Shown: piece by piece, positions 26,027 through 55,778 of the stretch
Layout of the letters: each line of letters opens with the position of its first letter
How positions within the stretch are numbered: the stretch's first letter is position 1
Assembly (NCBI GenBank): GCA_016432325.1
Contig: CP066684.1
Coordinates: 704,001 to 768,000, forward strand
Source: Candidatus Aenigmatarchaeota archaeon
GTDB lineage: Archaea > Aenigmatarchaeota > Aenigmatarchaeia > PWEA01 > JACQIF01
Reading direction: 5' to 3'
Length of the DNA: 64,000 nucleotides
Program-made: the position numbers and the translations under genes
The notes under the pieces: model-generated
Database searches by the model: none
The model's input: the letters and a program-made list of their open reading frames with translations, nothing else
What the model was told of the DNA's origin: nothing

Positions 26027-26135
26027 GCTCCGGTAGTTCAATTGGCAGAATGCTACGCTGTTAAACACTCCGCTCAAAGGGGCGGGTGCAAGCGGAGACG
26101 TAGAGACGGAGGTTCGAGTCCTCCCTGGAGCGCCA
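26027..26135 (+). tRNA. tRNA-Asn(GTT) with 34-nt intron at 37/38 (26064-26097)
   Basis: GCTCCGG/CTGGAGC acceptor stem, CTACG-CTGTTA^A-CGTAG, BHB motif, encoded CCA. Confidence 0.93.
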
Positions 26136-49594: not shown

Positions 49595-49657
49595 ATGCGG
49601 GAGTAGCCAGAACTGCGGTTCTGAAACTCCCCCATTGAAGAACATGCGGGAGTAGCC
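49595..49657 (+). repeat. twin-hairpin insert duplicating the tRNA-Leu(GAG) 5' end
   Basis: atgcgggagtagcc at 49595 and 49644; CAGAAC-TGCG-GTTCTG hairpin; ACTCCC complement. Confidence 0.85.
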
Positions 49658-52216: not shown

Positions 52217-53275
52217 TCACTTCTCGGCCATTATCTCCTTGACCTTCTTTTCCAGATCGGTTTTGTAGGTCTCGGAACGGTCCTCTTTCGAATAGAAGTC
52301 GGTCTTCGCTGCCATCGATATCTTCGCCGCCAGAGCACGCGCGACCTTGCCCCTTTTCTCCTGCGGCGCGTGCTGGATGTACGGATGCGTGAACAGCAGT
52401 CCATACTTGGGCGGTCGCGCGTCCCGTGCGCCCTGCTTGCGCGACTTCATGAAACGGAAGAGCGCCTTCTCCGCGCCGAGGAGCTGTATCGTGGACGCAG
52501 GCATCTTGGCCAAACGCTCGAGAGAGCCGGCGTGCTTGATCATCTTCGCCGCCAGTATCGGTCCCGCGACGGCCGTTGTGTTGGGCGCGACTCCGGGCAT
52601 CGCCCGTTCGAGATACATTTCGTAATCCCTTTTGAGGCCGAACAGGTCCACGGTTTCCGCGGCGTGCAGTCTTATCTGTTCGAGGTCGTCCTCCTCTATG
52701 TACGTGCCTATAGTGTCTTCCTCGCGTTTCGCCCCGTCGACTATCGCCTGCGCGTACTTCTCGTTGTCGCGAGTCTTGCGTTCCAGTTCCGGATGGTAGA
52801 TTCCGTACCACTCGTGCAGGCGTTCTGACATCACGTTCGCTATCTCTGTCAGGTCTTCGATGGAAGCGACGGCCTGCGCGACTATCTTATCCTTGTTCGG
52901 TTTCGCCTTCAGTTTTTCCTTTGTTTCCAGCCGCGCGAGCTCGGAGAGCAGCGCGTTCAGCTCCTGCTGGTCCTTGACAAACCCCGTTTCGACTGCAAGT
53001 TTGCGGACGTTGCTCGCCGCGTACTGCGCGCCCGGGTTGCCGGGCTCGCGCGTTATCTCAAAGCCTTCGTACTCGAAACCCAGGTCTGTGACGAGCGCCT
53101 TGTCCTTGGCTGTCGCGAGAACCTCGTCCAGTTCGGGCGTAGTGACTCCCTTGCGCAGGACGTGCAGCCGCTCCTTGATGGTCGCTGCGTCCCTTGGAAA
53201 CAGGGAGAAGGCTGCAACGTTGAAGTCCTTGTCCAGCGCGAAAACGCCCGCGTAGCAGGCTGTCACGTACAACAT
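52217..53275 (-). CDS. nop5: C/D box sRNP protein Nop5/Nop56
   Basis: RLHEWY..H.PEL, APN...VAG, LAKMPASTIQLLGAEKALF, PKYGL, RGK.ARALA.K. Confidence 0.93.
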   Translation of the reverse strand: MLYVTACYAGVFALDKDFNVAAFSLFPRDAATIKERLHVLRKGVTTPELDEVLATAKDKALVTDLGFEYEGFEITREPGNPGAQYAASNVRKLAVETGFVKDQQELNALLSELARLETKEKLKAKPNKDKIVAQAVASIEDLTEIANVMSERLHEWYGIYHPELERKTRDNEKYAQAIVDGAKREEDTIGTYIEEDDLEQIRLHAAETVDLFGLKRDYEMYLERAMPGVAPNTTAVAGPILAAKMIKHAGSLERLAKMPASTIQLLGAEKALFRFMKSRKQGARDARPPKYGLLFTHPYIQHAPQEKRGKVARALAAKISMAAKTDFYSKEDRSETYKTDLEKKVKEIMAEK

Positions 53276-53306
53276 ATCCGACCGCTCCTCTGAAAGGGTC
53301 GCTCGC

Positions 53307-53376
53307 GAAGGTTTAAATAGCTCATGCCGCAAGGGCGGGAGCTTTAAACCGCCCAGCGCCCGGAAGGTTTAAATAG
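53307..53376. repeat. twin-hairpin insert duplicating the TATA box between nop5 and rps17e
   Basis: gaaggtttaaatag at 53307 and 53363; ctttaaacc complement between. Confidence 0.8.
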
Positions 53377-53397
53377 GCAACGTCTAAACCTCCAGCT

Positions 53398-53691
53398 ATG
53401 GGAAGAAACGAAACCTTCGGTTTCAATCTTCCCCGTGAGTTGAGCTATATGGGAAGAATAAAGACCGCGCAGGTGAAGTCTCTCGGCAAGGATTTCGTCA
53501 AGGCCTATCCGGACAGGTTCACGACAGACTTCGACAAGAACAAGGAGATTCTGGCGACGGCCCAGATGAAGTCCAAGTGGCTCAAGAATCGTCTGGCCGG
53601 ATACACGGCGAAGCTCATGAAGCAGAAGGCCCGCGGCGTCATCATAACCGCTCCTCAGAAACAGGAAGAAGAGAAGAAGGAAGAGACATAG
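53398..53691 (+). CDS. rps17e: 30S ribosomal protein S17e (conserved start at 53449; 51-nt in-frame insert upstream)
   Basis: MGRIKT..VK, FTTDFDKNK, SK.LKNRLAGY; ATGGGAAGAA duplicated. Confidence 0.93.
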   Translation: MGRNETFGFNLPRELSYMGRIKTAQVKSLGKDFVKAYPDRFTTDFDKNKEILATAQMKSKWLKNRLAGYTAKLMKQKARGVIITAPQKQEEEKKEET

Positions 53692-53698
53692 TGGGATT

Positions 53699-54067
53699 TG
53701 GTGCGGAGGGCCGGACATTCTCCATGAATGCGCCAAGGCACATCGTGCCCGCAGGCGGATTTTTCATGAAAGTTTTTGCACGGAAGTGTGCAAAAAGTTT
53801 CGAACCGACGAACGCACTAAGCGACCAGATATCTCGAAGCGCATTTTTGATTTTCGCGTTTCGGATAAGCCTTCTTGAGTGTTGCCTCTCACAGAGTTTC
53901 CTCTCGAAACTCAAGGAACTGGCACCGTTGGTCTACGACTTCGTGTCGGAAGACGTACTTTCCGTGCATCTCGGAACGCGTGCGTTCCGAGTTTCCGAAT
54001 ACCGTTCGGAAATGCTTTTGCGCTCTGTGGCGCAAAAGCTTGCTTGGCCAGGCTTGGTTACCTCCGC
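53699..54067 (-). tRNA. tRNA-Leu(CAA) with four introns (53928-54043 D-loop, 53881-53918 at 30/31, 53831-53873 at 37/38, 53716-53798 at 59/60)
   Basis: Splicing gives an 89-nt Leu cloverleaf with CCAGA-CTCAAGA-TCTGG, long variable arm and A-CCA. Confidence 0.82.
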
Positions 54068-54127
54068 AAACTAAACCGACTTTCTTGCGGCAGGTACAAG
54101 AAGCTTTGCTTCTTGGTTACCTCCGCA
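54053..54127 (-). repeat. twin-hairpin insert duplicating the tRNA-Leu(CAA) 5' end
   Basis: 16-bp repeat TGCGGAGGTAACCAAG, period 59; AAGAAGC-AAA-GCTTCTT hairpin; TACCTGCCGCA complement. Confidence 0.85.
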
Positions 54128-54159
54128 TTGCTAATCGCTTCAGAAACAAAGGATATAAA

Positions 54160-54726
54160 TCACTTAATCCTCGCAAGCTCCTTTTTCAGGTTGGAAAGCT
54201 CGCTCTGCAGCTCGGAGACGTATTGCGTTACGCGCGCCCGCTCCTTGGAGCGCGGTATCTCTATCTCCGCCTCTTCGGGGCGCACGAACTCGCCGTCCAG
54301 AGAGATGAGGACGTCTGTGAGGTCCGTGACCGCCTGGCGCATCGCCTTCATGGTGCTGTCGCGGACGTGCTCCACTTCGTTCAAAAGGACCATTGTATCT
54401 GTCACGCTATGCAGGGACACCTTGATTTCCTCGAGCTTCTGGAGAATCTCCTTGTATCTGTCGATTTTGACGAACAGAGGCGCCATTTCTGACGCACGGA
54501 GAGTGCGTTCCACGGTCTCACCGACAGGCGGCCCGTACACCGGCATCTGAGGAGCTTGCGGAACAGGACCGGAGATGGGCTGGGGCGTCCATGAAGGTGC
54601 AGGAGGCAGGGCCATGGAAGGCGGAGCCATCGGAGGCAAGGGCGGCAGAGGAGGTCGCGCGGCGCCCACCCTGTCTTTTACGGCCTGTATGTCCGTGCGC
54701 TCCTCGCTCTTCTTCCAGAAAGCCAT
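54160..54726 (-). CDS. Pro-rich, coiled-coil hypothetical protein
   Basis: PLFVKIDRYKEIL followed by a coiled coil. Confidence 0.7.
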   Translation of the reverse strand: MAFWKKSEERTDIQAVKDRVGAARPPLPPLPPMAPPSMALPPAPSWTPQPISGPVPQAPQMPVYGPPVGETVERTLRASEMAPLFVKIDRYKEILQKLEEIKVSLHSVTDTMVLLNEVEHVRDSTMKAMRQAVTDLTDVLISLDGEFVRPEEAEIEIPRSKERARVTQYVSELQSELSNLKKELARIK

Positions 54727-54808
54727 TCGCATCCCTATAAGTGTAACAACTGCATAGTGTTCAGGGGAACCCATTTATAAACGTTTCAGCAGTTCTTATC
54801 GTTAACGC

Positions 54809-54935
54809 GCGCCGATGATCTAGTGGCATGATTCGAGCTTCCCAAGCTCGTTGTGCGGGTTCGATGACATCCTGTCCCATGGGGCGGGAGGTTTGAAACG
54901 CGAAGCGTTTCAGGAATATCCCGCTCGGCGCACCA
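54809..54935 (+). tRNA. tRNA-Gly(CCC) with 53-nt intron at 59/60 (54866-54918)
   Basis: GCGCCGA/TCGGCGC acceptor stem, CGAGC-TTCCCAA-GCTCG anticodon arm, encoded CCA. Confidence 0.92.
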
Positions 54936-54964
54936 TTCTAAACCTTCTTGTCTCCGCCTCCTGC

Positions 54965-55064
54965 CGTGCACGGAAAACGGAAGTTTTCCGGCATTTTCGA
55001 ACAGTGGTTCGAAAGGTTCGGATTGCATCCGAACATGCCGAAACGTCTATGCCGTTTCGTGCAC
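54965..55064. repeat. nested twin-hairpin inserts (four hairpins)
   Basis: cgtgcac at 54965 and 55058; hairpins CGGAAAAC/GTTTTCCG, TTTCGAAC/GTTCGAAA, GTTCGGA/TCCGAAC, GAAACG/CGTTTC. Confidence 0.75.
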
Positions 55065-55778
55065 AAGGGCGGGAGGCCCGAACTGTATTCGTGTCGACGC
55101 CAGCGCATCCGTGAAGAGCCTCTCGTCCGCATCGTTCATCGGCGGCGCGCCGGCATGCTGGACGAGCCACATACCGCTCTCCCGGATCTTCTGGACTGGA
55201 GACGAGAGGCCCAGCCATGTCGGCGACACGCGGCATTCGTTGCAACCGGCCACCGTGCCGATAAGAGAGGCTTCCAAACCGTCCGTGCCCATGCGCTGCG
55301 TTTGATTATCGACAACGATGAACCTGAATGAAAAGTTTTCGCGGAGGATGCGCGTGACCTCGGCTTCGACAGAGCGCTCTTTCTCAATGTCCCGCAACTT
55401 GAAGCCGGCTTCGCGCGAAGCGCGCGTTGTGAAGTCCTTCTCCCAGACAGCGAGGTAGGGATCGTTGGCGCGGTTGAGCAAAGCGCGCCCGATGTTTTTT
55501 CTGAAGATGCTCCTGTCGTGCGGCGGAGATTTCGTTGCGTCAAAATCCATCTTCTTTTCATCGACGAGGAAGTGCTCTGAAACGCGGCTGCGGAAATTTC
55601 CGTCCTTGTGCGTGCCTATGCGCACGATGCGCGGGCGCGAGCCTCCGTGGCCCCATGTCTCTCCTATCTCGTACAAAAAGTAGATGCCGTTGCGCGGAAG
55701 CGCGCTCACGTCAAAGGGCCACCTGACGAGCGGCAGCGTCTCAAGCTTTTCGTGGAGCGCCTTGCACGTCTGGGACAT
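55047..55778 (-). CDS. GIY-YIG-like nuclease
   Basis: GIYFLYE ... RIVRIGTH ... FRSR..EH, late conserved Glu. Confidence 0.6.
   Translation of the reverse strand: MSQTCKALHEKLETLPLVRWPFDVSALPRNGIYFLYEIGETWGHGGSRPRIVRIGTHKDGNFRSRVSEHFLVDEKKMDFDATKSPPHDRSIFRKNIGRALLNRANDPYLAVWEKDFTTRASREAGFKLRDIEKERSVEAEVTRILRENFSFRFIVVDNQTQRMGTDGLEASLIGTVAGCNECRVSPTWLGLSSPVQKIRESGMWLVQHAGAPPMNDADERLFTDALASTRIQFGPPALVHETA

Follow-up and report, generated by a model that had tools for sequence, protein, structure and literature searches.

The tRNA-Leu(CAA) gene on the minus strand of the window (the whole 64,000-nt stretch of DNA that was analysed) is best explained as a functional, single-copy gene split by four introns, the second of which appears to carry a minimal methylation guide; we put the probability of this reading at roughly 70%. 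Why do archaeal tRNA introns persist? The question is open, and a testable job for a 38-nt intron bears on it directly, all the more as the guide is repeated over six tRNAs in one genome and across the phylum. If the reading is true, the known minimum for an archaeal methylation guide, so far two motifs and 10-12 bp, drops to a single motif and 7 bp.

The gene runs from 54067 to 53699 in five exons (Table 1). The first-pass annotation had proposed, naming no strand, a Leu-CAA gene split by introns of 116, 38, 43 and 83 nt at 21/22, 30/31, 37/38 and 59/60, and its coordinates hold throughout. Removal of these 280 of the 369 nt leaves a canonical 89-nt tRNA-Leu(CAA) with a perfect cloverleaf, the conserved bases, a 7-bp acceptor stem, a long variable arm, A73 and an encoded CCA. 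ARAGORN calls the spliced 89-mer tRNA-Leu(caa); it called no tRNA on the unspliced window, and Rfam gave nothing but weak, sub-threshold matches over the locus. A purpose-written search, with one joint score for tRNA profile, base pairs and BHB junctions, ranked the four-intron parse best without prompting (score 63, against at most 25 in the reversed genome and 34 for the best non-tRNA match in the real one). From the true start there is no competing parse. A seven-intron parse starting further upstream scored 48. A fifth intron by way of the upstream 5′ duplicate was rejected by hand: both strands of its central helix would have one and the same sequence, and the sole self-complementary 4-mer lacks flanking helices. 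No second, alternative anticodon exon was seen within the gene. Each junction is a strict or relaxed BHB cut after the second bulge base, intron 1 having only an hBH. The central helices of introns 1-4 form 3/4, 4/4, 3/4 and 3/4 pairs, so that three of the four have one mismatch, as first claimed, and the anticodon does lie on the 7-nt exon ACTCAAG (53880-53874). Contigs from two sequencing runs, which may be the source samples and hence not independent, cover 53000-55100 with zero differences, which argues against an assembly error; joints in these contigs with sides of about 30 nt or less and low depth were disregarded.

Table 1. Features of the tRNA-Leu(CAA) locus (window positions)
Feature	Positions	Strand	Remarks
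Exon 1	54044..54067	(-)	tRNA positions 1-21, 24 nt
Intron 1	53928..54043	(-)	site 21/22, 116 nt, hairpin stack; relaxed junction with 3/4 central pairs and no intron-side helix
Exon 2	53919..53927	(-)	positions 22-30, 9 nt
Intron 2	53881..53918	(-)	site 30/31, 38 nt; sole perfect BHB; bears the putative guide module
Antisense element	53909..53915	(-)	7 nt, complementary to positions 31-37; the partner of C34 is the G five bases before box D′
Spacer	53908	(-)	one base between antisense element and box D′
Box D′-like element	53904..53907	(-)	UCGA, after the one-base spacer
Stem and loop	53894..53903	(-)	3-bp stem with GAAA tetraloop, closes the predicted kink-turn
Box C′-like element	53887..53893	(-)	3-nt bulge ending in U, then GA and two bases pairing with D′
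Exon 3	53874..53880	(-)	positions 31-37, 7-nt micro-exon, anticodon CAA; predicted guide target
Intron 3	53831..53873	(-)	canonical site 37/38, 43 nt; 86% identical to the same-genus ortholog, whose central helix is perfect
Exon 4	53799..53830	(-)	positions 38-59, long variable arm
Intron 4	53716..53798	(-)	site 59/60, 83 nt; hairpin modules common to other tRNA introns and intergenic sites
Exon 5	53699..53715	(-)	positions 60-76, A73 and encoded CCA; 7 nt from the rpS17e stop codon
Upstream hairpin	54086..54127	(-)	minihelix-like leader: direct repeat of 16 nt from the tRNA 5′ end, then a stem-loop and an acceptor-like 3′ strand; no BHB intron
TATA-like box	54154..54159	(-)	predicted; lies 92-93 nt before G1 and 33 nt before the duplicated 5′ end
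nop5 (box C/D RNP scaffold protein)	52217..53332	(-)	some 370 nt away from the tRNA gene; listed for context
rpS17e	53398..53691	(+)	convergent neighbour; context only

What is an exact complement of the anticodon exon doing in the adjacent intron? The first-pass annotation had noticed it within the 30/31 intron and suggested that it could impose a splicing order. The complement is real and conserved, and it is better read as a guide; because it also occurs in single-intron genes, where no order must be imposed, the ordering role is doubtful, and an effect on order is possible as a by-product. The layout of intron 2 is that of a C′/D′ kink-turn, as far as geometry can be predicted from sequence, with tandem G-A pairs; the boxes are degenerate, and the pairs are compensatory over 43 modules. 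Wobble base C34 pairs with the fifth base upstream of D′ (D+5), the position that the box C/D guide rule assigns to the target (PMC7994747). All three proteins of such a particle (fibrillarin, L7Ae and Nop5) are encoded in the genome. There is one motif only in the 38 nt, with no second C/D motif, the guide has 7 bp against the 10-12 nt of archaeal sRNAs, and an Rfam search of the module gave no match. Half-guides methylate poorly in vitro. Since the second motif and a 10-12-nt guide are missing, we do not class the module as a box C/D sRNA: it is a box C/D-like guide in function and not a textbook member. Guiding the 2′-O-methylation of C34 in its own tRNA is a likely function of intron 2.

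The distribution of the module points the same way. Leu genes of the class were sampled by their first (5′) exon only (n=69), and guide plus boxes were found in 14/16 intron-bearing Leu-CAA genes, 17/25 Leu-UAA genes and 0/14 genes with CAG, GAG or UAG (at most 0.06 in shuffles), counts that overstate significance because relatives share ancestry and are not independent trials. The antisense tracks the anticodon loop, with a CAA-matching element in CAA genes and a UAA-matching one in UAA genes. The partner of base 31 covaries in 30 of 31 modules (A-U in 27, G-C in 3, one exception), and the outer kink-turn pair changes on both sides together (U-A in 25, A-U in 7 and C-G in 5 of the 43). The location varies: the module sits in the 21/22, 30/31 or 37/38 intron, also in single-intron genes (L122, L131) and in one gene without a 37/38 intron (L135). 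In this genome six tRNAs have own-intron guides to position 34, where 0.14 would be expected: Leu-CAA, Leu-UAA, Trp, Lys-UUU, Arg-UCU and Gln-UUG, all with a pyrimidine at 34 and all from two-codon boxes. The eMet form of the guide matches 162/371 genomes, with about a dozen matches for the reversed pattern; a guide-pattern search (13/371 genomes) was circular and served solely to collect examples. A motif scan of this genome for a free-standing CAA guide gave three other matches, apparently in coding sequence. Two further introns deserve mention. The Glu-UUC 37/38 intron of this genome (C1:624032-624221, plus strand) has 5/7 guide pairs and an altered D′, apparently a decayed position-34 guide, of which the Glu-UUC gene of a single-contig genome (G019) retains a clear one. 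In the Pro-GGG 37/38 intron (C1:829431-829613, minus strand) a C′-like box accompanies a D′ box of consensus sequence; reading by hand allows the antisense to be set against U32 rather than 34, and the scan favoured a D-loop site.

How would the guide fit with splicing? Folding was computed protein-free, with a program that models neither kink-turns nor proteins. Of the junctions only BHB2 then forms in the uncut precursor (0.82 at 37 C), while BHB1, BHB3 and BHB4 stay below 0.05 in every intermediate, so that enzyme-assisted recognition of relaxed junctions has to be assumed, and the kink-turn region is drawn into a competing hairpin. The guide fold is about 2 kcal/mol from the BHB2 fold, and protein binding could thus tip the balance. 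Guide pairing occupies A31-G37 and hence excludes BHB2 and BHB3; should intron 3 be removed first, this pairing becomes the dominant fold (0.6-0.94 at 37 C). Introns 1 and 2 are rivals for G23-G24. The outer pairs of BHB3 number 1 before and 6 after removal of intron 2, which favours 30/31 being cut before 37/38. Is the module then, in an extension of the first-pass suggestion, only a folding or timing device, one that hides the anticodon loop and controls in which order or how fast the introns leave, methylation playing no part? The mutual exclusion at so small an energy difference and the dominance of the guide fold once intron 3 has left would fit, and L7Ae needs no more than a single kink-turn. 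However, the one-base spacer sets base 34 at D+5 in every case, and neither the restriction to Y34 tRNAs of two-codon boxes nor the occurrence at three different sites and in single-intron genes is what such a device would call for; we consider it unlikely.

Less likely again is a captured box C/D sRNA in decay, of which the module would be a relic with no function in the Leu-CAA gene. The degenerate boxes are in its favour, as are the absence of the module from 2/16 CAA and 8/25 UAA relatives and the Leu-UAA intron of the single-contig genome, in which a hairpin module apparently replaces the guide. But the 7-bp match is perfect, and the outer kink-turn pair, C-G here, is G-C in the same-genus ortholog, a compensatory change in an intron that is only 61% identical.

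That ortholog (L178 in genome G001, on a contig beginning at tRNA base 3) also speaks for the gene as a whole. Its exons are identical at 87/87 nt, whereas its four introns are 47-86% identical, the D-loop intron lying at a slightly different site; identical exons with diverged introns indicate selection on the spliced product. The rpS17e locus of that genome is without the tRNA, and the ortholog is on another contig. (The rpS17e ORF has two possible starts, at window 53398-53448, of which the second ATG, 53448, is the start in G001.) The host genome, 875 kb and 90% complete, has about 2500 UUG codons and, as the first-pass annotation had asked to be checked, no other Leu-CAA gene among its 45 tRNA loci. 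A pseudogene or a wrong parse is very improbable: only one of the four junctions is not relaxed, an intron-side helix is lacking in intron 1 and Leu-UAA might read UUG, yet the cloverleaf is perfect, the ortholog matches at all 87 exon bases compared, no second CAA gene was found, the four-intron parse meets no rival that begins at the true start, and most junctions in this genome are of the relaxed kind. We are therefore highly confident, as far as a genome can tell, that the gene is real and spliced.

Introns are absent from two of the 45 loci; 11 loci carry a single one, 11 carry two, 20 carry three and one carries four, two of the loci being hand-corrected (Pro-UGG and eMet, with two introns each), so that 43/45 are interrupted. 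EndA, with one match in the genome and nearest relatives in Aenigmatarchaeota, is a single subunit of 201 aa. The lysine-rich insert before its catalytic His has no counterpart in M. jannaschii and can be aligned with N. equitans EndA; in our reading it is the L3 loop, a feature linked with tRNA disruption in DPANN (PMC5829648). RtcB is encoded too. The sole SpoU protein is TrmJ-like, and a stand-alone TrmL was not found in the genome. Rfam recovers only 8 loci above its cut-off; with standard finders recovering 8 of about 45 tRNA genes, the tRNA sets of Aenigmatarchaeota are badly under-annotated. The set of this genome includes Ile-UAU and two Asn-GUU genes (one at window 26027-26132); Ile2-CAU, Arg-CCG and Pro-CGG were not found in the search of the 90%-complete sequence. 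An intronless CAG-anticodon tRNA with a Ser-like body, G73 and no encoded CCA (C1:582673-582757, plus strand) is possibly a mis-decoding tRNA or a pseudogene.

Are four introns exceptional? The first-pass annotation thought so, recalling up to three in Thermoproteales, which agrees with the maximum in reviews of 2014 (PMC4033280). Its inference does not survive: four-intron genes are published for Freyarchaeia (Arg-TCT, Ile2-CAT, Leu-GAG) and Atabeyarchaeia-2 (Trp) (PMC11291895, Supplementary Data 4), and at least five other genomes of the class have them, with five genes found by search plus the same-genus ortholog. Among them are three of the 69 sampled Leu genes (L130, L262, L269) and Glu-UUC and Leu-UAA of the single-contig genome. 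The 7-nt anticodon micro-exon (30/31 plus 37/38) is common in Leu genes of the class. Finder errors (L132, L252, L257) were removed by eye, as were 'four-intron' calls for Thr, Pro, Arg and Met in G001 and Ser-CGA in G019, which probably have three. Four introns are uncommon and no record: the gene adds one more case to an extreme already known, and taken by itself the count holds modest interest. A literature search on four tRNA introns in DPANN or Aenigmatarchaeota, with most subscription papers outside it, returned nothing relevant. The Leu-CAA gene of G019 (L240) has a 13-nt intron at the unusual site 8/9.

Transcription, splicing, protein binding and methylation, as we would read them from the gene, may proceed as follows. 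A transcript would start from the TATA box with a leader of about 60 nt. L7Ae would bind the single kink-turn of intron 2, Nop5 and fibrillarin would assemble on it, the 7-nt antisense would pair with positions 31-37, and fibrillarin would 2′-O-methylate C34. The four BHB-type junctions would be cut by the single-subunit EndA with its L3 loop and the exons joined by RtcB, intron 2 leaving before intron 3, and intron 4, which uses the T stem, independently. As guide pairing and BHB2/BHB3 are mutually exclusive, methylation would precede cutting if the guide acts in cis and come from the excised intron if in trans. The odds for cis seem about even; for the Trp intron guide, cis action was proposed at first and trans action reported later (PMC7994747). 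More tentatively, and with the odds somewhat against it, Aenigmatarchaeota may possess a portable guide of one kink-turn and 7 bases that can reside in whichever intron of the pre-tRNA it targets and, acting in cis, methylates the wobble base ahead of splicing. Such guides would form a minimal class that ties modification to splicing, and they would lend otherwise parasitic tRNA introns a selected function.

How does the locus compare with known systems? Freyarchaeia and Atabeyarchaeia (PMC11291895) and Thermoproteales (PMC4033280, PMC4090602) likewise combine non-canonically placed BHB-type introns with a high share of interrupted tRNA genes (92-95%; 43/45 here), up to four introns and intron sequences common to several tRNAs. 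In contrast to them, the host here is a DPANN archaeon with a single-subunit EndA, and the introns are much longer and hairpin-stacked, for a gene of 369 nt against 143-231 nt in the Asgard four-intron genes. The closest functional parallel is the euryarchaeal pre-tRNA-Trp intron guide sR50 (Cm34, Um39; PMC7994747, PMC4033218), which shares the self-targeting intron, D+5, position 34 and the three proteins; the Leu-CAA intron differs in its 38 nt, one kink-turn, 7-nt guide, single target and non-canonical 30/31 site, and its type of module recurs in six tRNAs of one genome. Position 34 of Leu-CAA, Leu-UAA, Met and Trp is a known box C/D target in Pyrococcus (PMC7994747). The Pyrococcus sRNAs for Leu(CAA), Leu(UAA) and Met and the Pyrobaculum position-34 guides (PMC6009581) have the same predicted target nucleotide; they are separate two-motif genes, whereas the Leu-CAA guide lies inside its target's intron. 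Leu position-34 guides are so far known only as free-standing sRNAs, the Trp intron being the known intron-guided case, and a literature search (most subscription papers fell outside it) found no description of Leu-intron or single-motif intron guides. In Nanoarchaeum equitans, also DPANN, the elongator tRNA-Met intron has box motifs and yields a C/D-like stable RNA, which differs in apparently having no assigned target and in being limited to Met and to the canonical site (PMC3491384). In Cyanidioschyzon merolae the anticodon-arm junction is cut last, in an order set by BHB stability (PMC3728597), similar to the order proposed here; that system is eukaryotic, with at most three introns and no guide.

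Several side observations concern tRNA architecture more widely. Direct copies of 9-16 nt of the tRNA 5′ end lie upstream of Leu-CAA, Asp-GUC, Leu-UAA, Leu-GAG (window about 49600-49645), Ala-CGC and Thr-CGU, most of them leading into a hairpin and then an acceptor-like 3′ strand; the usual TATA spacing in this genome is 30-33, and at the Leu-CAA locus this leader moves the gene 59 nt away from its TATA box. The modules of intron 4, hairpins of 20-47 nt, also occur in other tRNA introns and at non-tRNA sites of this genome (about 314481, 743609, 516071, 292920, 546769, 689057, 872648 and 420466), with similar ones in G001 introns, a pattern suggestive of shuffled introns or of a small mobile hairpin element. 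Outside the window, in a Leu gene (C1:29821-30081, minus strand), a UAG and a CAG anticodon exon of 7 nt each stand in tandem, and the BHB junctions of both are workable. No other Leu-UAG gene was found in this genome despite its 730 CUA codons, and a literature search on one-gene, two-isoacceptor tRNA splicing found no paper. This gene, probably more novel than the Leu-CAA finding, is a candidate for alternative cis-splicing into two isoacceptors. Its layout matches 65/371 genomes of the class (control 1; L303-L332), the order being sometimes swapped and CAG being combined with UAA in family f14.
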